64,000 nt of DNA from Acidobacteriota bacterium (GTDB lineage Bacteria > Acidobacteriota > UBA6911 > RPQK01 > JAJDTT01), in assembly GCA_965217775.1 (NCBI GenBank), contig CBDCJH010000002.1, positions 3,104,001 to 3,168,000 on the forward strand. The letters run 5' to 3'. A program made the translations under genes and the position numbers. Under the pieces are notes generated by a model that saw nothing but the letters and a program-made list of their open reading frames with translations, made no database searches and was not told the DNA's origin. Shown piece by piece: positions 1 through 55,419 of this stretch. Positions within the stretch are counted from its first letter, which is position 1; each line of letters begins with the position of its first letter.

Positions 1-422
1 TCAAGACCCTGCGCTGGCGGAGACTCCCCGACCTTCCCTTTCCGGTTCACGGGATGGAAGCCGTCGCCTACCGGGACCGGTTCATCATCATGGCCGGCGG
101 CATCAAGGACTATCCGGTGGACCATCCGTACCGCTACAAGGACCGGATCCCCGAGGTGCGCTCCCCCAACTTCGACGTCCTGGTGTTCGACACGGTGGAG
201 AAAACCTACCGGACCCTTCCCTCCAAAATCCTTCCCTTTCCGGTCCACCCCGAGCGGGAGCAACAGATCCGGGAAGCCACCGGCATCGACCTCTCGAACG
301 GGGTCTACCGGCTGGCGGCGGAACTGAGCCTGGTCGGAAAGAAGCTGTACCTTTGCGGCGGGGAGGTCATCAGCCCCCACAACGTCACCGAAGAGGTGGT
401 GGTCGGAACCATCGTCGAGTGA
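1..422 (+). CDS. Kelch-repeat-like beta-propeller protein, C-terminal part (truncated by window edge)
   Basis: Open frame from the window start; Kelch-like motifs (WRRLPDLP, IIMAGG, KLYLCGG); stop at 420-422. Confidence 0.6.
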   Translation, partial: KTLRWRRLPDLPFPVHGMEAVAYRDRFIIMAGGIKDYPVDHPYRYKDRIPEVRSPNFDVLVFDTVEKTYRTLPSKILPFPVHPEREQQIREATGIDLSNGVYRLAAELSLVGKKLYLCGGEVISPHNVTEEVVVGTIVE

Positions 423-455
423 GGAGCCTCCCATCGCAAAGCGATGGCATGGAGA

Positions 456-516
456 GGCGACTTTCTTGTCGCCGATTGAGAGCGGCGGCTTTCTTGCCGC
501 CCACTGGGCGACTGGA
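456..516. repeat. REP-like palindrome cluster, left part (continues at 2434-2468 beyond the intron)
   Basis: GGCGAC-tttctt-GTCGCC (456-473), GGCGGC-tttctt-GCCGCC (484-501) and half-palindrome GGGCGACTGGA (506-516). Confidence 0.75.
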
Positions 517-2433
517 GTCACGGTAGGAACGGCAGTTTCCTGCCGCCCCCCGCACAGATCCGGACGTGCCCGTTAAGGCATCCGGCTCCTACCTTGGGTG
601 TGGACGGCCAGCGGAACCGCTGCCCCGGCCACGGGTGACGGATCTTCACGGATGGCCAGAGCAATTCCGTCATCCGTCGCAACCGTCCCCAGCTGAAGCG
701 GTCGCGTTGGGACCGGCGGCGCAAGGCTCGCAGCCACCGCCGTTGCAGCAGATAGCAGAAACCTCGCAGCCAGCGCGTACTCCCCGGAACCGCAATATAG
801 TTCAGCCAGCCGTTCAGGACCCGGCTCAACCATTTCCCGACCTCCCAGTGATCCGCGTGCCGTTGTCTCCACAGCCTCTCCCCCACCCGTTGCAGGGTCC
901 GGTTCATCCGTTTCGCGCTTGGCTTCCGCCCCAGCCGGAAGCGTCCCTTCCGGGTCTTCGCACAGTAGTGCGTGAACCCCAGAAAGTCGAACGTCTCCGG
1001 TTTCCGCTCCCCGCGTCGTCGCCGATCCGCTGCCGCAAATCGTCCGAACTCCACCAGTCGCGTCTTTTCCGGGTGCAGTTCCAGCCCGAACTCGGCGCAC
1101 CGTTCCCCCAGGTCTCGGAGAAACCGTTTCGCGTCCGCCCGTCTCTGGAATCCGGCCACGAAGTCGTCCGCATATCGCACCAGGATCGCTTCGCCTTTCG
1201 GGACTCGTGGGCGCCACGTCCGATGGAACCATTGGTCCAGCACGTAGTGCAGGTACACGTTGGCCATGACCGGCGAGACGTTGGCGCCCTGAGGCGTCCC
1301 TCTCCCCGTGTCCGACCAGGTCCCTTCTTCCATCACGCCGGCGTTCAGCCACTTGCGCAGCAGCCGCAGCACCCGCCGGTCTCCGATCCGCCGTTCCACG
1401 AACTGCATCAGGCAGTCCCGGTCGATCGCATCAAAGAACGTCCGAATGTCCGCGTCCACGATCCAATTGACTTTCCGCCGTTCGATCCCGTAGGCCAGTG
1501 CATCCAGCGCGTCATGCGCCTTCCGTCCGGGCCGGAACCCGTAGCTGAGCCCGAGAAACTCCGCCTCGTAAATCGGCGTTAGGAGCTCGTCCACGACTGC
1601 CTTCTGGAGGATCTTGTCCTCCAGCGCGGCCACGCCGAGCGGTCGTGTCCTTCCATCCGGCTTGGGGATGTTCACCCGCCGGACGGGAGGCGCTCGGTAC
1701 GCGCCCCGGTGCACGCGGCGATGCAGGTCCAGCAGTCGCTCTTCCAGCTTCGCCCCGTACTCCTCCCACCGTACCCCGTCGATTCCCGGGGCAGCATCCT
1801 TCCTCAGTCCGAGGTAGGCGCGGCGCAGGGCCTCCACAGTGATATGGTGCAGCAGCGCGGTCAGTCGCTCCTTGGGGTTTCTCGCGATCGCTCGCCGTAT
1901 CCGGTCCACCGCTTGGGACACGCTCCCCCGACTCTGCGTCCGGCGCGTGCTTTGGCTCACCGAATTCCCCTTGGTTCCATCCCTTCGCTCCACCGGCTCC
2001 GCCGAGGGTCGCCCCTCTTTGTTCGCCCGCTTCATCGCTACTATGGATGAATCCGATTGCTTCGTTCCGTCCATCATGAGTTTCGGGTTACTCCTTTCTC
2101 ATGCGACCCCGGGGCGACCCCCCGGGGTGAAATGAAGCCCTCCCAGGTCCCGGAACAAGATTTGCGTACGTGCCTGGGTTCTTTGACACCGCGGAGCCCG
2201 GCCGGCCCTCACCTGGGCGGTCCAGCCGGTGTTGCCTTCGACCGCGACTACAGCCTCGGCACTTCCGATCATGGAGCTTTCGATGCTCAATAGCCTGCCC
2301 ATACGCACCGCTACCGACGCTTCGCCGACACCCTCACGGGTGCCCACGCACGGCTCGCGGAGAAACGTGGATGGTTAGTCCTTCGTTTCGGCGGACTTCC
2401 ACCGCCTATCTTGTGCCAGTTAGCCTGGCGCAC
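517..2433 (-). mobile_element. Group II intron (IIB-like), full length
   Basis: Minus strand starts GTGCG at 2433; domain V GAGCCGGATGCCTTAACGGGCACGTCCGGATCTG, a domain VI hairpin and terminal AC at 517; encodes an RT/maturase. Confidence 0.93.
518..2077 (-). CDS. ltrA: Group II intron reverse transcriptase/maturase, no endonuclease domain
   Basis: Motifs APGIDG, IPKPDGRTRPLG, SYGFRPGR, DADIRTFFD, GTPQG, RYADD, FDFLGF; domain X; no HNH. Confidence 0.96.
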   Translation of the reverse strand: MMDGTKQSDSSIVAMKRANKEGRPSAEPVERRDGTKGNSVSQSTRRTQSRGSVSQAVDRIRRAIARNPKERLTALLHHITVEALRRAYLGLRKDAAPGIDGVRWEEYGAKLEERLLDLHRRVHRGAYRAPPVRRVNIPKPDGRTRPLGVAALEDKILQKAVVDELLTPIYEAEFLGLSYGFRPGRKAHDALDALAYGIERRKVNWIVDADIRTFFDAIDRDCLMQFVERRIGDRRVLRLLRKWLNAGVMEEGTWSDTGRGTPQGANVSPVMANVYLHYVLDQWFHRTWRPRVPKGEAILVRYADDFVAGFQRRADAKRFLRDLGERCAEFGLELHPEKTRLVEFGRFAAADRRRRGERKPETFDFLGFTHYCAKTRKGRFRLGRKPSAKRMNRTLQRVGERLWRQRHADHWEVGKWLSRVLNGWLNYIAVPGSTRWLRGFCYLLQRRWLRALRRRSQRDRFSWGRLRRMTELLWPSVKIRHPWPGQRFRWPSTPKVGAGCLNGHVRICAGGGRKLPFLP

Positions 2434-2468
2434 AATCGCCCCTCCTGTGGGCGACAGGGATGTCGCCC
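2434..2468. repeat. REP-like palindrome cluster, right part
   Basis: AATCGCCC (completes the palindrome split at 516) and GGGCGACA-ggga-TGTCGCCC (2449-2468). Confidence 0.75.
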
Positions 2469-2472
2469 CTCC

Positions 2473-3966
2473 TCAAAGCAGCGCTCGGGCGCTTCGGGGC
2501 GGAATTACCCGAAATCCATAGATCGTGGCCTGCTTCAGATGCAGACGAATGCTGAAGGCCCCCTGGGCCACCACCGGCGCCAGATTCTCCCGCCCCTCCC
2601 AGACCACTTCCTGTTGATGCCCGTTGCCGGTCAAGGGCCGGCAGTTCTCGCGTGAGTAACCCGGGATGATCCTGCCCTGGGCATCCATGAGCTCGGCCCG
2701 GATCTCGCCGCCCTCGGCTTCCGCGTTCAGCAGCAGTCCCGGCTCCCGGTCCTTGGCCAGGAGGAGCCGGGTGGTCAACGTCCCCTCGGTCCCTGCCCTC
2801 CAGCCGGCGAACCCTCCCTGCTGGTACAGCGCCAGACCCACCCCTCTCGTCCCCTCCCAGTCGTGCAGGGAGTGGTCGCTGCCCGCATAGAAGACGGCCA
2901 TCCGGCCGTCGACCACGGCCTCCGCGGGGATCGGCCGAACCGAGCCGGCATCCCATGCTCCCGCGCTGGTGTCTGCAAAATAACCGTCGCGGAATCGCGT
3001 CCAATCGATTCCGTCCCGGCTCAGGCCCAACTGTCCCCGGAAGATCTCGTTCTCCGAGTCGTAGCCCTCCCCGTACATGACGTAGACGTCCCGGGCCCGG
3101 CTGTATTTGAAGATGCCGGGACCATAGATCTGCCATGCCGGAGGATCCCGTTCGTCGAGCGTGTGAACCGTGACCGGCGCCGACCAGTGAAACGCGTCCG
3201 GGCTCGTGGCACGTCCGATGGACCGTTTGCCCCGGACGTGGGTTCGAAAGTAACCGGCGTAGAGGCCGATCCGGTCGTCCCAGAAGAAGAGGTTGTGGGT
3301 GTCGAAGCCCCCCAGACGGTTGACGTACGGGGTGAATTCCCAACGGATTCCGTCGGCGGAGTAACCGATTCCCACGCCCCGGCCCCGGAAGTCCCAGCGA
3401 TTGAGCATCATCTTGTAGCGCCGGCCGGGGTCCGCTTCCGCATAGTCCTTCACCACCCAGTAGACGGGCGTTCCCCGCGGGCGCTCGTTGGGGTCCAGGA
3501 ACAGGATGTTGTTGTCCTTGGAACCCTGGAAGTCCACCAGTCCCAACTCCGGTTTCTCCCACCGGATGCCGTCGGAGGACTGGGCATAGAGGCAATGGCT
3601 GCGGTTGACCCCCTCCTCGGTCCGGCCCAGGATCTGGTACCACATCCGGTAGAGCCCCTCCTCCTCGTCGTGCAGGATGGCCACGTAGTTGAGGATCCCC
3701 TGACGCTCCCAGGGACGGTCGATGACCAGAAGGGGGTTGGCAGGGTGTTTTTCAAGCCGCGCCTGCACCAGCTCCAAGCCCTCCCGGCTCCGGACCAGCC
3801 GGTCGTCATGCAGCAACAGCACCTGCTGGCGGTTCAGCACCAGTGGCTCCGTTGCGGACGGAGGATCGGCAATGGGCCCGCAACCGGAGCCGGCTCCCAT
3901 CAGAAGTACGCCGCAGATCAAGGCGGCGGGACCGGCAGGTCCAAGCTGGAGTGGTTTTCTGGTCAT
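2473..3966 (-). CDS. Exported glycoside-hydrolase-like five-bladed beta-propeller protein
   Basis: Signal/lipobox-like N-terminus; repeated S-x-D-G-x-x-W boxes; GGFDTHN motif; C-terminal domain shared with 44954 and 50304. Confidence 0.7.
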   Translation of the reverse strand: MTRKPLQLGPAGPAALICGVLLMGAGSGCGPIADPPSATEPLVLNRQQVLLLHDDRLVRSREGLELVQARLEKHPANPLLVIDRPWERQGILNYVAILHDEEEGLYRMWYQILGRTEEGVNRSHCLYAQSSDGIRWEKPELGLVDFQGSKDNNILFLDPNERPRGTPVYWVVKDYAEADPGRRYKMMLNRWDFRGRGVGIGYSADGIRWEFTPYVNRLGGFDTHNLFFWDDRIGLYAGYFRTHVRGKRSIGRATSPDAFHWSAPVTVHTLDERDPPAWQIYGPGIFKYSRARDVYVMYGEGYDSENEIFRGQLGLSRDGIDWTRFRDGYFADTSAGAWDAGSVRPIPAEAVVDGRMAVFYAGSDHSLHDWEGTRGVGLALYQQGGFAGWRAGTEGTLTTRLLLAKDREPGLLLNAEAEGGEIRAELMDAQGRIIPGYSRENCRPLTGNGHQQEVVWEGRENLAPVVAQGAFSIRLHLKQATIYGFRVIPPRSARALL

Positions 3967-7109: not shown

Positions 7110-7259
7110 GTCCGAGAGACCCGGACGGCACATGGCGAAGCCGAGGCGTGGCTCCTCACCACGGGACGGCATCCACCCACCGTTTGATCCCTGGACGTCA
7201 GGGGCGGGGCGCGGTGTACTCACCCATTCAATCCGAAAAAGCGAAACACGAGGTTGACC

Positions 7260-8507
7260 ATGGCGGACAGCAAACCGAACCGAAACATCATGAGCGTCAG
7301 TTGGGGCGACCATCTGGAAGCCTGGGACGGGGATGACGCGATGGATCAGCCGGACAAGATTCTTCGCTGCGCCGAGCGCTGGCAGTCAGAGTTCGGCGCC
7401 GGCGCCATCTACTGGCGGGAGATGCGGAGCTGGAGCAAGTTCCGGATCGGCTTCACTCCCCCCGGCGCCCCGCCCCGCAAGGTCTTCGACGACTACGAGA
7501 GGAAGGGCTACGACGAGCATGAGTTGATCACCACCCAGGTCAAGGAGATGGGCTACAAGGTCTACATGTACGCCACCATGTTCGACGAAGGGTTCCCTCT
7601 GAGCGAAGGCTGGCAGGGAGGCATCTACGGCTGGCAGAGTCAGTTCACCATGGCCAACCCGGAGTACCTGGCCCGGGACAAGGAGGGCCGGCCCCATTAC
7701 GGCATCATGGAGTACTCCTACCCGGACGTGCGCCGCTACACCATCCGGAGAATCCTGTCGGCCCTGGGAGACTATGACTTCGACGGAGTGTTCGTCTGCA
7801 CCCGCTCCCAGTCCAAGCCGGCCGTCTACGGCGACCAGTTCGGATTCAACGCGCCCGTAGTCGAGGAATACGAACGGCGCTACGGCGTGGACATGATGCG
7901 GCGCAATTTCGAACTGGAGCCTTGGCGGCGGCTGCGGGGGGAGGGCGTGACCCAGTTCCTGAGAGAGTTGCGGTCGGCCCTCAACGCCCGGGGAATGAAG
8001 TTGGGCATCGGAGTCCCCACCGGGAATTACATCGGTCCTCCCTTGGGCAACCTCTACCTGGACTGGAGGACCTGGGTCGAGGAGAAGCTCCTGGACGATC
8101 TGGTCATCAACCAGGTGGCGGTGCGCTGCCCCTCTTTCTGGCACCTCATGTGGCCCAAGAATCCGGGTTACGGATACTTGGTCAATGACGAGGACCACTA
8201 CGGAATCAAGGGGGGAGACGACTACGGCGAGAAGCGCTTCTGGTCCATCCCTCTGGTCAAGGGTTCGCCTGCTTACGAAGGGGCAATGAAGCGCCTGTAC
8301 GGAGCCATCCGGGACGACTACAGCCCCCACTGCGCCCGGCACGGATGCCGGCTTCACGTGGCCCGCATGTGGTCAGTGCACGACCCGGAGGAAGAGGCCC
8401 GGCTTCTCGACACCGAGGGCGTGTCCGGCCTGGCGATCGGCTCGTTCGGAGCCGTCGTGGACCGGCGGGCCGGCGGCGTCCGCCCCGACGTGGCCAATCC
8501 GGCCTGA
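7260..8507 (+). CDS. Putative TIM-barrel glycosyl hydrolase-like protein (GHL10-like), copy 1
   Basis: NPEYLARD...YSYPDVRRY...YDFDGV pattern; paralog of the next gene. Confidence 0.6.
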   Translation: MADSKPNRNIMSVSWGDHLEAWDGDDAMDQPDKILRCAERWQSEFGAGAIYWREMRSWSKFRIGFTPPGAPPRKVFDDYERKGYDEHELITTQVKEMGYKVYMYATMFDEGFPLSEGWQGGIYGWQSQFTMANPEYLARDKEGRPHYGIMEYSYPDVRRYTIRRILSALGDYDFDGVFVCTRSQSKPAVYGDQFGFNAPVVEEYERRYGVDMMRRNFELEPWRRLRGEGVTQFLRELRSALNARGMKLGIGVPTGNYIGPPLGNLYLDWRTWVEEKLLDDLVINQVAVRCPSFWHLMWPKNPGYGYLVNDEDHYGIKGGDDYGEKRFWSIPLVKGSPAYEGAMKRLYGAIRDDYSPHCARHGCRLHVARMWSVHDPEEEARLLDTEGVSGLAIGSFGAVVDRRAGGVRPDVANPA

Positions 8508-8562
8508 GTCCGGTTCGGATCTTTGACGTGTCAGTTTGGAAAGGGATCCTGCTAAGTTGACC

Positions 8563-9810
8563 ATGGCGGACAGCACCACGAACCGGAACATCATGAGCGT
8601 CAGTTGGGGCGACCATCTGGAAGCCTGGGACGGGGACGACGCCCTGGATCGGCCGAACAGGATTCTGCGCTGTGCCGAGCGCTGGCGGCGTGAGTTCGGC
8701 GCCGGCGCCATCTATTGGCGGGAGATGAGGAGTTGGAGCAAATTCCGAATCTGCTTCAGCGCCCCGGGCGCTCCGCCGCGAAGGCTCTTCGACGACTACG
8801 AGAGGAAAGGCTACGACGAGCACGAGCTGATCACCACCCAGCTCAAGGAGATGGGCTACAAGGTCTACATGTACACCACCATGTTCGATGAAGGACTCCC
8901 GTTGAGCGAAAGCTGGCAGGGAGGCGTCTACGGCTGGCAGAGCCAGTTCACCATGGCCAACCCCGAGTACCTGGCCCGGGACCGGGAGGGCCGGCCCCAC
9001 TACGGCGTCATGGAGTACGCCTACCCGGACGTGCGCCGCTACACCATCCGCCGAATCCTGTCGGTGCTGGGGAACTACGACTTCGACGGGGTCTTCGTCT
9101 GCACCCGCTCCCAGTCCAAGCCGGCCGTCCACGGCGACCAGTTCGGATTCAACGCGCCCGTAGTCGAGGAGTACGAGAGGCGCTACGGCGTCGATATTAT
9201 GCGGCGCAATTTCGAGCTGGAGCCCTGGCGGCGCCTGCGGGGAGAAGGAGTAACCCAGTTCCTGAGGGAACTGCGGTCGGCGCTCAATGCCCGGGGAATG
9301 CAGCTGGGGATCGGAGTTCCCACGGGAAACTACATCGGTCCCCCACTGGGCAACCTCTACCTGGACTGGAGGACCTGGGTCCAAGAGAAGCTGCTGGACG
9401 ACCTGGTCATCGACCAGGTGGCGGTGCGCTGCCCCTCTTTCTGGCTCCTCCTGTGGCCCAAGCACCAGGGTTACGGATACCGGGTCAACGACGAGGACCA
9501 TTACGGGATCAAGGGTGTCGACGACCACGGAATCCCGAGCTACTGGTCGATCCCACTGGTCAAGGGCTCGCCTGCGTACCAAGGGGCCATGGACCGCCTG
9601 TACAGTGCGATCCGCGACGACTACGGCCCCCATTGCGCGCGGCACGGTTGCCGGCTCCACGTGGCGCGCATGTGGTCGGCACACGACCCGGAGGAAAACG
9701 CCAGGCTTCTGGACACCGAGGGCGTGTCCGGTCTGGTGATTGGCTCTTTCGGAGCCGCGGTGGACCGGCGGGCCGGCGGGTCGCGTCCGGACGTGGCTAT
9801 TCCGGCCTGA
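8563..9810 (+). CDS. Putative TIM-barrel glycosyl hydrolase-like protein, tandem copy 2
   Basis: Colinear, highly similar paralog of 7260-8507. Confidence 0.6.
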   Translation: MADSTTNRNIMSVSWGDHLEAWDGDDALDRPNRILRCAERWRREFGAGAIYWREMRSWSKFRICFSAPGAPPRRLFDDYERKGYDEHELITTQLKEMGYKVYMYTTMFDEGLPLSESWQGGVYGWQSQFTMANPEYLARDREGRPHYGVMEYAYPDVRRYTIRRILSVLGNYDFDGVFVCTRSQSKPAVHGDQFGFNAPVVEEYERRYGVDIMRRNFELEPWRRLRGEGVTQFLRELRSALNARGMQLGIGVPTGNYIGPPLGNLYLDWRTWVQEKLLDDLVIDQVAVRCPSFWLLLWPKHQGYGYRVNDEDHYGIKGVDDHGIPSYWSIPLVKGSPAYQGAMDRLYSAIRDDYGPHCARHGCRLHVARMWSAHDPEENARLLDTEGVSGLVIGSFGAAVDRRAGGSRPDVAIPA

Positions 9811-11856: not shown

Positions 11857-11960
11857 CCGGAGCGGCGGTTTCCAGCCGCCGAACCGGAGCGGCGGTTTCC
11901 AGCCGCCGAACTCCTGAGTAACGGTGGGCTACAAAGGAATGGGCGACCGGAAGTCGTCCC
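11857..11960. repeat. REP-like palindromes; tandem 27-bp direct repeat
   Basis: CCGGAGCGGCGGTTTCCAGCCGCCGAA twice, then GGGCGACCGGAAGTCGTCC. Confidence 0.75.
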
Positions 11961-12002
11961 TTCAGACCACCCCCACATGTTTCCAAGGAGGAGTGATCCA
12001 GC

Positions 12003-30753: not shown

Positions 30754-31238
30754 ATGGGAGCACACATGAGACACGCATCCGTAACGTTGACAGTATTCGT
30801 ATTGTTAACAGCCCGTGGTAAAAGTCCTCACGGCATTCGACCGTCCCTGCATCCCGGCGGACTGCGTTGCGACTCGGTCACATACTCCCGGTATGCTTGT
30901 CTGTTATTTCTTGTCTGTCTTTCTTCTTGGGGGGGTACAGATTGTGGTGTCAGCAAAAAGGGAGCACCCTGTGGGAAATCTTTGATTTTCCACAGGGGGG
31001 TTCCGGGTGACGAGGGGGCCTCGGGGCTCTCGTTTCAGGGATTTCAAGTGGGTATGTGTCTCTTTGCATCCGGGGGGTCTCAGGGGGGGCCGGCCCCCCC
31101 TGCCCCCGTCAACGCCGCCAGTGGCGACAGCAGGCGCAGGGCCGTGACCCAGCCATCGTCCAGGCTTGGCTCGGTGGCGCCGGCATGATTTCTGGTGGGT
31201 TATTCCGATACGGGTTGGGATCTTTTGGGAGGATCCAT

Positions 31239-31392
31239 CCGAGGCGCCTCTGGCCAGAGGCGCCTCGGCGGCGGTGGTCGGGCCGTTATGTATGCCGGCC
31301 GTCAAGGGCCGGGAGGGAGTGGGGCCGCCACCGTCTTTCCCAACGTCCTGAATGGATACGTGAGCGTCAAGGCTCGCACGACAAGCACAGGA
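31239..31392 (+). ncRNA. Putative IS110 bridge RNA (5' hairpin, target-binding loop, donor-binding loop); 5' end uncertain
   Basis: Two internal loops, each with a GTCAAG-capped hairpin flanked by guides matching the target (GTATGC / GGAGGGAG) and the donor (ATGGATAC / GACAAG). Confidence 0.85.
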
Positions 31393-31402
31393 GGAAGGAA
31401 AG

Positions 31403-32356
31403 ATGACTCAGGATACCTCAAAGACGGTGGGTGTGGACATCTCGAAGGCGCATTTGGACGTGCACGAGTGGCCTTCGGGACGGTCGAAGCGGTTCCCCAA
31501 CGACACGGCAGGGTTCCAGGCCCTGGCCCGCTGGATCGGACCGGAGGTCCGGTGCGTGGTGTATGAGTCCACGGGCCCCTGGCACCGGGCGATGGAGGAA
31601 GCTCTGGCCGCTCGGTTGCCGCTGGCTCGGGTCAACGCGATGCGGGCGCGGCGGTTCGCGCAGGCGCTGGGCCAGGAGGCCAAGACCGACGCGGTGGATG
31701 CCCGGATCCTGGCCCGGATGGGGGAGGCGCTCCCGTTGCGGCGTGTGGACGTGTCCTCGCCCACGCAGCGCCAGTTGGAGGAACTGATCTCGGCGCGGGA
31801 CGGGCTGGTGAAGGATCGGACGGCGGCTCGCAACCGGAGCCACCACGCGCGCCACCCGATGGTGAAGCGGCATTTGCGACAGCGGCTGGCTCAGATTGAG
31901 CGCCAGATCCGGGCCCTGGACGGCGAGTTCCGCAAGTTGCTGAAAGCCGATCCGGCGCTGGCGCGCAAAGCCGAAGTGCTGACTTCGATTCCGGGAATGG
32001 GTCCGGTCACGGTCGCGGGCCTGCTCTCTCTGATGCCGGAACTGGGACAGATCGACTCCAAGGCGGTGGCCAGCTTGGCCGGTCTGGCGCCGGTGGCTCG
32101 GGAGTCGGGGACCTGGAAGGGACGTCGCTTCATCCGCGGGGGCCGGCATCGGGTGCGGCGGATGCTGTATATGGCCGCCCTCACCGCCATTCGACACAAT
32201 CCGGACTACATCCAGAAGTATCGCCAGCTGCGTGAGCGGGGCAAGGCGCCGAAGGTGGCGCTCACGGCGATCATGCGCAAGATGGTGATTTTGGCCAACG
32301 TCCTGCTGAGCCAGGATCGGGTGTGGACACCGCGGCCAGTCAGGGCGGTCGGATGA
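31403..32356 (+). CDS. IS110 DEDD recombinase/transposase
   Basis: VGVDISK, YESTG, KTDAVDA (DEDD); SIPGMG; GLAP...SG catalytic Ser; RRFIRGGR; RBS AGGA. Confidence 0.97.
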   Translation: MTQDTSKTVGVDISKAHLDVHEWPSGRSKRFPNDTAGFQALARWIGPEVRCVVYESTGPWHRAMEEALAARLPLARVNAMRARRFAQALGQEAKTDAVDARILARMGEALPLRRVDVSSPTQRQLEELISARDGLVKDRTAARNRSHHARHPMVKRHLRQRLAQIERQIRALDGEFRKLLKADPALARKAEVLTSIPGMGPVTVAGLLSLMPELGQIDSKAVASLAGLAPVARESGTWKGRRFIRGGRHRVRRMLYMAALTAIRHNPDYIQKYRQLRERGKAPKVALTAIMRKMVILANVLLSQDRVWTPRPVRAVG

Positions 32357-33013
32357 GTCTAACCAGGGAGGAAACAATCCCTGGAAAATCGGAAGATTTG
32401 CAACATGGATACTCCCTCATCGCGCCTTGTCCGGCGGGCGCAGGAACGGTCTCGGTGCTCGCGGGACTTTCACCACGGACTGTTAACAGCGTACACGACT
32501 GCCGCGGTGCCGACGGCGGAGGCAGCCGGCGACAAGGCCCTGGACGAATGGATTGGAACTTGGACGTCCCAGGTCGTATTCAAACCGGCTGCATGGTCGC
32601 TGAAGCCCAGAAAAATATCAGGAACGTCGAAGGCCGAGTGGATTCTGCATAGCCGATACCAGCAGATCTCCAGCCGCGCCGGGGAGTATGAGACCCGCGA
32701 ACTCCAGCGCTATGAACCGAAGAGCGGCAAGTATCACAAGTGGGTCTTTTCGTCTGACGGCTCGAACAGCTTCTGGATTGGCGCCTGGGACGCAGAGTCC
32801 TCCACCATGACCTGGGAGTACGTCGACTTCGGCGCCGGCCTCAGGGGCAAGATCGTGGATCGCTTTTTCAGCGACGGGAAATACGAATCGAAACTGCTTA
32901 TGGAGGACAGCACGGGCAACGTGCTCCTGGATGTCCGGTCCATACAGACTCCCGTCCAGAAACCCGCCGGGTAGTCCCCGTTCCGCTTCCGCAGCGGCTG
33001 GCCGTCGCCGCTG

Positions 33014-53388: not shown

Positions 53389-55419
53389 CGGAACTTCACT
53401 TCCGAAATCCGTCTAATCGTTTGTATGTCAGGAAGATAGACGAAATCAACCTGCCCAATTACTGGCAACAAATCGGGTCGGATTGACGTCGAGCAGCTCG
53501 AAAACCTTCGCCTGCAGCGGCGTCGGCTTGGCGAACATCGGAAACGGATGCTCCGGAGCGTCCGGCAGGGTCACCTGGTTCAGGGTGAGCGTGCCGAGAT
53601 CCGCCAGCAGCGTCCGGAGGCTATGCACGGGGAGCCCCTCAGCCGTTTGCTTGCGCGCGGCCTTAGCTTTCGTGCGCGCGGACACCTTTGCCTTTTCCAC
53701 CGGTGAGGTCCGCAACGCTCGCGCCCCGGGACGATCCTCCTCCTCGAACAGCAGCGGCGCCAGACGCCGCCTCAGGTGCCATTGCAGGTAGTACGCCAGC
53801 AGGCACAGAAAGACGTGCCCGCGCACATGGTCCTCGCTGTAGACGAAGACCGGGCGCAGGGCCAGCTGCGCCGTCTTGAGCGAGCGAAACGCCCATTCGA
53901 CCTGGGAGAGGCTTTTGTACGCCTCCACCGCCTCCGCAGCCCCGATGTCGGAGGCCTCCAAGCTGGTGCGAATGATGTAGATGCCGTCCAGTTGCGCTTC
54001 CGCGTCGATCTTCTCCTGCCGCCTCGACCAGCGGATGTCCTCGTCGGTGACTTCAATCAGGAAGTGTTTGTCCACCTTCTTGCGGCTGACGTCCCGGCCC
54101 ACCCGGCGGTTGATGGCCTCCTGGCCGCGTAGCCGAGCGTGGGGGGAGCGCACGGCGCTGGCGATGGTCTCCAGGATCTTCTCGGTCGCGCACAGCAGGT
54201 CCTCGCGCTTGCGGGCCCGCTCCTGCCGCAAGCGGGGATTGAGGCAGACCAGCAGCCGTTCGCCGGGAAAATCCGGGCTCAGAATCTCCGCGACCCCGTC
54301 CGGAACCAACTCGCCCGGCTGCAACGGCGCCGGTTCCTCGCCCTTCCCGCCCGATTTTGGGGGCCGCATCAGCTTGCGGATGGCGCCCGTTCTCAAGGCC
54401 GAGATCCAGGCCAGACCGGCCGGTGAAAGGTCCTCGCGCAGCCGCGCCGTGGTGAGCATGCCGCGGTCCCCGACCAAGGCGATGGATTCGATGCCGAAGC
54501 GCCCCTGGATCTTCTTGACCTGCGCCGCCACCGTGCTCGGATCCCCGGTGTTGCCCGGGAACACCTCCACGGACAGCGGGCAACCGTCCCCGGCGCAGAG
54601 CAGGCCGAAGACGATCTGCTTCTTACCTTTCTTGCCGTCGCGGTTGTGGCCGAATGCGGCCAGGGAACAGCAGCGCCCCTCGAGATAGCTGGAGGAGACG
54701 TCATAAAGCAAAAGTGTCCGGCCCTCCAGGTGGCGCCGCGCCAAGCTCTTCTCGATCCAGACTTGGCGGCTCAGCAACCAGTCGAGCATCTGAAGCATCT
54801 CGTTGCCGCGGACCGGACCGAGGCCGAGGACGGGGCCGAGGCTGCTGGTGGCGGTCTCCGGAGACAGGCCCCGGGCGGTGGCGAGCTTGGAGGCGGGTTG
54901 GAGCACCCGGGCGACGAGGGCGGCGAGGGCAAGGTCGCGGTTGCGGCTGCGTTTGCGGTGCAGGAGGCGTTCGAGACCGAGTTGGCGGCCAAGACCGAGG
55001 AGGGCGGCGACATGACCATGGGGAAGGGCGCGGCGGATGGCGAGGTCATCGTCGAGGGGGCGATAGACTTGGCCCCCCTTGAGCAGGGCGCGGATGCCGT
55101 CGACGATCTCCGGGGGGAGCTTGGAGAGGTTGGCGAGGGTGGTGCGGCGGATGCGCTTGCCCTCGCGTTTGGCGTGGCGGAAGAGGATGGCGGGTGGGCT
55201 GTTGCGGTTGGGGATGACATCGACGTGGTAGGACATGGTGGAGAGGCCTCTTACATGGAAACAATATCAATCACTTATACTCCTATTATACAAGGAAAGA
55301 CTGACATAATATTCGAGTCCGTACATGGAAACAAATATCCAGTTGTAGGCTCGGGCTAAGGAACCGTAAACTGTGCTATTTCAATGATTTACTATGGCTT
55401 GAGGGGCAGTGAAGTTCCG
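53389..55419 (-). mobile_element. IS1634-family insertion sequence
   Basis: 12-bp TIRs CGGAACTTCACT / AGTGAAGTTCCG; GTTAAA duplicated at 53383-53388 and 55420-55425. Confidence 0.88.
53446..55236 (-). CDS. IS1634 DDE transposase
   Basis: YDVSSSYLEG, GHNRDGK, VGDRGM, YKSLSQVE.AFRSLK, LRPVF, HVFLCLLAY. Confidence 0.95.
   Translation of the reverse strand: MSYHVDVIPNRNSPPAILFRHAKREGKRIRRTTLANLSKLPPEIVDGIRALLKGGQVYRPLDDDLAIRRALPHGHVAALLGLGRQLGLERLLHRKRSRNRDLALAALVARVLQPASKLATARGLSPETATSSLGPVLGLGPVRGNEMLQMLDWLLSRQVWIEKSLARRHLEGRTLLLYDVSSSYLEGRCCSLAAFGHNRDGKKGKKQIVFGLLCAGDGCPLSVEVFPGNTGDPSTVAAQVKKIQGRFGIESIALVGDRGMLTTARLREDLSPAGLAWISALRTGAIRKLMRPPKSGGKGEEPAPLQPGELVPDGVAEILSPDFPGERLLVCLNPRLRQERARKREDLLCATEKILETIASAVRSPHARLRGQEAINRRVGRDVSRKKVDKHFLIEVTDEDIRWSRRQEKIDAEAQLDGIYIIRTSLEASDIGAAEAVEAYKSLSQVEWAFRSLKTAQLALRPVFVYSEDHVRGHVFLCLLAYYLQWHLRRRLAPLLFEEEDRPGARALRTSPVEKAKVSARTKAKAARKQTAEGLPVHSLRTLLADLGTLTLNQVTLPDAPEHPFPMFAKPTPLQAKVFELLDVNPTRFVASNWAG

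Follow-up and report, generated by a model that had tools for sequence, protein, structure and literature searches.

A review of bacterial group II introns distinguishes three target specificities, namely homing sites, terminators and attC sites (PMC4424553). Among introns without an endonuclease (En) domain, RmInt1 and RmInt2 of Sinorhizobium meliloti, both of class D, home to multicopy, non-essential targets and are biased towards the lagging-strand template (PMC4615759); RmInt2 takes both inverted repeats of ISRm17 as targets, so that the usable strand offers one of them in every case (PMC4615759, PMC5894124). In class E, two saturated intergenic sites are described for Kl.pn.I5 (PMC3522654). 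Group IIC introns, IIC-attC introns included, are without EBS2, pair with an IBS1 of 3-4 bp and insert after a stem-loop, their targets being terminators and attC sites (PMC7923331, PMC4424553). REPs are also used by other mobile DNAs: all copies of ISPpu9, ISPpu10, ISPa11, ISRm19, ISRm22, ISPsy8 and IS621 lie at one REP base, and in the same account a group II intron of P. putida is REP-associated in only 2 of 9 cases (PMC1525189). In the literature covered, which was mainly open-access, we found no group II intron that homes to REPs by EBS pairing; tables and closed papers may mention one. No such case is described in the accessible text of PMC3552965, PMC3522654, PMC4853749 or a bioRxiv preprint. 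The main text of an intron-neighbourhood survey (PMC7306698) contains neither 'palindrom' nor 'repeat', and a word search of a REP survey (PMC3733652) finds neither 'GGAG' nor 'intron'.

The window analysed here, a stretch of 64,000 nucleotides, belongs to the genome of a sponge-associated bacterium that its close relatives place in the Acidobacteriota. At 517-2433 on the minus strand it carries a 1,917-nt group II intron which is very probably a mobile En-minus class E element, with RNA guides set for the commonest REP family of its host and homing by base pairing. The intron resembles S.me.I4 and Se.ma.I1/Kl.pn.I5 of class E in its intron-encoded protein (IEP), the D1D4-6 model, the missing En domain and EBS1-3, but its targets are REPs. 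With RmInt1 and RmInt2 it shares En-minus homing to a multicopy, non-essential target and the lagging-template bias; the class differs, and they home to IS elements present in tens, whereas its own target is a 22-23-nt non-coding palindrome with hundreds of copies. Like TeI3 and TeI4 of Thermosynechococcus elongatus, it forms families differing in EBS1-3 and has ORF-less forms derived by a single deletion, which in those introns are moved in trans; they, however, belong to the CL/IIB1 class, and the targets named for them are intron ORFs, a tRNA gene and intergenic sites, not REPs (PMC2882425). Palindromic, mostly intergenic insertion motifs are common to the window intron and to group IIC and IIC-attC introns, but the window intron has a 6-nt EBS1 and a covarying EBS2 and splits the palindrome. 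The REP-targeting IS elements differ in being DNA transposases, the present element being a ribozyme-RT. The mechanism looks like ordinary base-pair homing; the ecology of the target appears undescribed, and a natural series of guide changes is clear. Homing to REPs would make hundreds of sites available on the two strands, most of them intergenic, easing target saturation and host harm, and would bring retroelements into the company of the mobile DNAs that exploit REPs, one selfish element living on another.

The intron, its ends and its class

The intron runs on the minus strand from GTGCG at 2433 to AC at 517, and shows the group II hallmarks of GUGYG...AY ends and domain I, V and VI structure. 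Its domain I core (2177-2399) matches Rfam RF02005 (group-II-D1D4-6) with 166 bits. The folded element at 556-588, which we take from established group II structure to be domain V with its AGC triad, has a 4-nt loop closed by U-G in the minimum-energy fold, and a bulged G is required for a 5-nt loop. Domain VI folds at 520-553, with a bulge in which A524 is the likely branch point. Hydrolytic self-splicing in vitro is a trait of class E, for which a domain V loop of 5 nt has been described (PMC3753933). An ORF of 519 aa (518-2077, minus strand) encodes the RT/maturase, which scores 351 bits against TIGR04416 (cut-off 300). RVT_1 was its sole match in a Pfam search, which returned no endonuclease domain. 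The reading frame crosses domains V and VI and stops at the last intron bases.

The ends proposed in the preliminary description, 517 and 2433, hold on three counts. Nine other full-length copies align across exactly 1-1917; empty alleles of the copy at C2:5165874 occur in two relatives (G007 and G002), where the exons abut with no gap and no duplication; and the REP obtained by rejoining the flanks in the window belongs to a subtype found 43 times empty.

On protein and RNA comparisons we assign the intron to class E (IIE), with EBS1, EBS2 and EBS3 of the IIB type and no En domain. The IEP is 53.5% identical to that of a plasmid intron named Se.ma.I1/Kl.pn.I5 in PMC6764390. For pRmeGR4b, identity is 55% with the IEP of the disrupted intron and 33.5% with that of the intact one, and the tree agrees, with one named class E reference and one class D reference, the latter on a long branch. 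The introns of this plasmid are described as S.me.I4, of class E, and RmInt1, of class D (PMC5894124); names matched from that description, rather than from record labels, would make the disrupted one S.me.I4 and the intact one RmInt1. Rfam splits the two in the same way, and places the window intron on the D1D4-6 model. The intron had earlier been called IIB-like and not IIC. This is borne out by the class E protein, the Rfam model, the RT tree and the split hairpin, and a class C (IIC) reading was rejected on the class E protein, the covarying EBS2, the 6-nt EBS1 and the split stem.

The guides could be located in domain I, on the minus strand. EBS1, AGUCGC at 2244-2249, has exon positions -6 to -1 as its partner; this hexamer had been proposed as EBS1 from its complementarity, correctly, as it lies in the loop of the d3 stem in the fold and covaries with its targets. 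Beside it at 2250 is the delta U. EBS2, GCUCCA at 2272-2277, was recognised by covariation with GTAG and GCAT targets, and its CUCC core faces the GGAG tag of the REP (exon -12 to -9). EBS3 is the A at 2184, identified as the base whose changes track the first 3' exon base (here T at 516) and supported by counts of Watson-Crick pairing. These complementarities show that the 4-nt tag is read by EBS2, the 5' arm by EBS1 and the base that follows by EBS3, and all insertions accordingly fall 12 nt from the tag.

The REP family and its occupied and empty sites

The tag-plus-arm half-site was observed 391 times on contig C2 of the host genome, whereas a 5th-order Markov model trained with the repeats left in predicts 47.5. 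There are 342 empty REP hairpins in the genome. They agree with the definition of REPs of the GTAG-type superfamily as palindromes of 20-40 nt with stems of 6-9 bp and a terminal 4-nt tag, high in copy number and extragenic (89 of 94 tested lie outside genes as predicted by a rough gene caller). The tag is GGAG, and a GTAG family is also present. In keeping with REP identity, a Y1 transposase gene (L001), a candidate RAYT gene, stands between inverted GGAG units of related subtypes; it and a paralogue find REP_Tyr_transpos as their best family, at 70.5 and 78.2 bits, under the cut-off of 80. A family of 316-aa Y1 transposases (L003 and ten homologs) has 11 full copies in the genome, 83-100% identical.

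In the window, the intron lies between convergent host genes, one encoding 497 aa without a Pfam family (2473-3966, minus strand), which ends 39 nt before the intron in the same sense, and one of which the 3' end, with a weak Kelch match, lies at 3-422 (plus strand). As the preliminary description had it, removing 517-2433 restores a hairpin, the third of four palindromes between these genes. Its 5' half (2434-2445, minus strand) consists of the GGAG tag (2445-2442) and the 5' arm, or IBS1 (2439-2434), and its 3' half (505-516, minus strand) of the rest of the loop and the 3' arm. The other three units are empty: unit 1 (451-473, plus strand), unit 2 with a degenerate tag (478-501, plus strand) and unit 4 (2450-2472, minus strand), whose arm ends in A at -1 so that EBS1 pairing is incomplete. 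Related units reported near 11857-11960 were found as two empty REPs of the same family at 11859-11880 and 11886-11907 (plus strand) and a looser one ending at 11963 (minus strand). The insertion had been described as being in the loop. The palindrome is indeed the site, but where in it the loop begins is incidental. Counted from the first G of the tag, the cut lies at a constant distance of 12 nt, which puts it 0, 1 or 2 nt inside the loop according to the subtype. Thirteen occupied sites have the standard tag and arm; of these the window site alone shows a G-T wobble at -2, which makes it atypical. Unit 1, with a perfect match to EBS1 in the opposite orientation, which replication disfavours, is empty, and the intron occupies a weaker site whose orientation is the favoured one.

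Sixteen copies or derivatives occur on C2: 10 full, 4 ORF-less (642-755 nt), 1 internally deleted and 1 a 67-nt 5' stub. Fifteen stand in REPs at one register, of which 14 are GGAG-led (one with a changed tag) and 1 is GTAG-tagged, the stub being assigned from its 5' flank alone; the sixteenth is in a coding gene. The suggestion of homing into a multicopy intergenic repeat, which flanks unrelated to the REP would have contradicted, is thereby upheld. The full copies are 98.7-100% alike, nine of the ten without length change. The in-gene full copy (G000:C2:3931636-3929720) is in sense orientation, with the frame open across the junction; its site has no 3' arm and mismatches EBS3, and the gene is predicted to need splicing to function. 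Splicing and mobility of the intron are both likely, the latter from its copies and empty alleles.

We matched the intron in seven of eight genomes of the genus, and its 5' part in none of 52 further genomes from the same family and order. At the window locus it is absent from all six relatives in which both flanking genes were found (the left gene was not found in two relatives); five of these have plain REP arrays of 83-244 nt and the sixth a different insert. This insert, in G006 (L193), is about 640 nt long, resembles the 3' end of another group II intron and is positioned after a hairpin matching window 431-447. Three occupied sites have mismatched REP arms. Recombination between copies was rejected as the cause at the one tested, where the flanks are contiguous in G007, G002 and G003; the other two are a tandem duplicate.

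Intron sequence is present in sponge metatranscriptome runs. No exon-exon joint was found in contigs of three RNA runs and one DNA run, contig-level data that are uninformative either way. Two RNA runs gave loose contig ends at position 516, which proved to be REP 3' arms, and a 3'-to-5' joint in run X8 was rejected as the window intron, its domain VI differing, and belongs to another intron. Depth in the RNA runs was highest over domain I, and contig depth cannot rank the parts.

Elsewhere in the window, an IS110 element (30896-32485; transposase 31403-32356, plus strand) with four genome copies at 99.6-100% interrupts a multicopy repeat other than the REP, the left part of which has at least 30 further matches. 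The expectation of a second mobile element sited in a repeat was thus justified, and repeats may serve the intron as a 'safe harbour'. Tandem paralogous genes, 88% alike across 300 nt, lie at 7254-8507 and 8536-9810, and a DDE transposase gene (PF01609) at 53446-55236 on the minus strand.

Pairing, strand and hairpin in the choice of site

Site choice follows pairing strength. With C at -2, 12 of 110 sites are occupied, and with T at -2 only 1 of 227 (Fisher p 9e-6), the one being the window copy. Guide-target pairing was also tabulated across the genus, in a table of 56 rows, with 2 spurious rows set aside and one duplicate locus omitted; a decayed GTAG copy in G004, spotted by eye, stands outside it. 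Among 48 rows with a readable domain I, EBS1 is paired at all six positions in 43 and EBS2 at no fewer than 4 of the first 5 positions in 46, and EBS3 pairs Watson-Crick in 44 of 45 copies. Six EBS1 types exist, among them those of a GTAG-REP form and of a form directed at an integrase gene, and each pairs best with its own targets. The GTAG copy, with EBS1 GGGUGC for AGUCGC and EBS2 CCUACG for GCUCCA, each complementary to its own flank, departs from the other copies in precisely those loops that are predicted to read the exon. Exceptions are one G005 copy outside a REP and one G003 copy with guides that do not match its flank. EBS2 of class E is dispensable for self-splicing in vitro, and a role in homing has been proposed (PMC3753933); its role here therefore rests on covariation.

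Of 46 genus sites with both flanks, 32 have a perfect stem of at least 6 bp, 9 are mismatched REPs and the remaining 5 fall outside REPs, in three integrase genes, in another gene and at one unexplained site. Because inheritance or duplication accounts for several of the sites, these counts exceed the independent events. In G004, a full-length sister form with all three guides changed (L013-L015) occupies codon 4 of three different tyrosine-integrase genes. Their frames are open without the intron (360-368 aa), and the host has a homolog at G000:C2:820125-821228. In the domain I tree this form is nested among the GTAG forms (clade support 100, inner 66-68); in the protein tree, unlike the domain I tree, it branches as the sister of the REP forms. 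From these comparisons, sub-lineages appear to have moved to REP subtypes, to the GTAG REP family and to a multicopy integrase gene, either by point changes in EBS1 or by changes in all three guides together. Specialised lineages are reportedly the subject of Michel et al. 2007. With its six guide sets on one scaffold, the genus is a natural series in which EBS2 function in class E could be tested, and the intron could be useful as a compact En-minus retargetable element.

Orientation is also biased. In 15 of the 16 host copies the sense strand is the G-rich strand, that is, the lagging-strand template (p 2.6e-4), compared with 173 of 342 empty REPs, replication arms being drawn from skew turning points at 1.70 and 5.01 Mb. 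Skew arcs fitted on about 30 windows each give 10 of 10 in G002 and 8 of 11 in G005 (three exceptions); raw local 20-kb skew gives 23 of 35 in relatives, by a method that is 80% right in the host genome. Transcription was rejected as the cause, since the upstream gene, by the rough gene caller, is in the same sense at 11 of 16 copies and 63 of 89 empty REPs, with no enrichment. The bias agrees with that of RmInt1 and RmInt2. By analogy with class D and E introns, the spliced RNP would reverse-splice into the single-stranded lagging-strand template at the fork, and the nascent strand would serve as primer. As REPs are intergenic, number hundreds and lie on both strands, about half would always be in the usable orientation and the targets would not be exhausted.

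Recognition of structure besides pairing, be it the REP hairpin, a cruciform or a stalled fork, as in IIC and IIC-attC introns, would also draw the intron to such sites. The stems of the genus sites, 41 of 46 REP-like by eye, fit this idea, as do 3 of 56 sites of distant class E relatives that lie in hairpins where 0.76 would be expected (p ~0.04), one of the three within a pair of inverted repeat units; the other 53 lie outside hairpins. Pairing alone, however, predicts the share of hairpins: the 112 empty sites that are fully pairable, having the tag, the arm, C at -2 and T at +1, comprise 100 REP hairpins and 12 sites without a hairpin, leaving a hairpin requirement unsupported. Moreover, the register of the cut is tied to the tag and not to the loop, copies are found in non-hairpin coding sites, the integrase-targeting form uses no hairpin, and a folded stem would be expected to mask IBS1 from EBS1. 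We therefore consider structure-assisted targeting unlikely. The scarcity of fully pairable sites outside REPs bears equally on the proposal that insertion is loose, at any IBS1 match, and that selection purges all but intergenic copies. The copy in a coding gene is compatible with purging, and PMC3522654 makes a case for selection against group II insertions, but purging cannot account for the fixed register, the preference at -2 or the covariation of EBS2, which makes it improbable.

A single entry into a REP, followed by multiplication of intron-bearing units through RAYT, gene conversion or duplication, has a few observations in its favour, namely two ORF-less copies that are a tandem duplicate (711 nt common at 99.3%), mosaic SNP patterns among the full copies and a longer 5' flank common to three G005 copies. 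Yet the flanking REP halves vary among copies whose introns are almost the same, guides change along with targets, and the replication bias is seen in occupied and not in empty REPs. Empty orthologous alleles exist, and the exact ones for the copy at C2:5165874 largely refute such passive spread, which we regard as very improbable. Under guide-directed homing, selection may have favoured the guide set fitting REPs. A wider proposal is tentative and rather doubtful: that EBS-guided group II introns have repeatedly evolved REP tracking as a life style in its own right, in which the intron reads the tag thought to be used by RAYT and follows diverging REP subfamilies, the palindrome helps by refolding the spliced exons over IBS1, and the guide set has also moved to an island integrase gene. 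If the integrase islands themselves land in REPs, there would be a three-level parasite chain on one repeat.

ORF-less derivatives and distant relatives

The ORF-less derivative of 642-648 nt goes back to one deletion common to ten ORF-less copies in four genomes. In G005, one full copy is found beside ORF-less copies of two other guide types, which suggests supply of the protein in trans, and on such protein the derivative would spread. All eight matches in G006 are ORF-less or stubs, hence orphaned derivatives, and a search of this genome at E 1e-100 returned no intact intron protein. One ORF-less copy carries a 112-nt palindromic insert in domain I (G000:C2:1903927-1904038), which is present in G007 and has four further genome matches (81-88%). 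Several copies (G000:C2:3009757; L075, L078, L077, L081) end or are interrupted at about nt 55-78, in domain I. The 67-nt stub is common to three genomes, and one G002 copy has about 2 kb of extra DNA at that point.

The distant class E set comprises 56 sites out of 121 loci, mostly at 50-65% protein identity; loci without a full domain I, 3' end or flanks, and duplicates, were left out. With EBS registers anchored on delta, the first four positions of EBS1 are paired in 49 of 56, and EBS3 pairs in 45 of 48, compared with 17 in shuffles. The hairpin-sited introns are L150, L165 and L185, of which L150 stands in a GGAG-led hairpin and L185, with a perfect EBS1 match, in the pair of inverted units already mentioned. 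Two genomes of the same order contain head-to-tail tandem copies of a class E-like intron of 2,009 nt with C as EBS3 (L092, L093, L105, L106).
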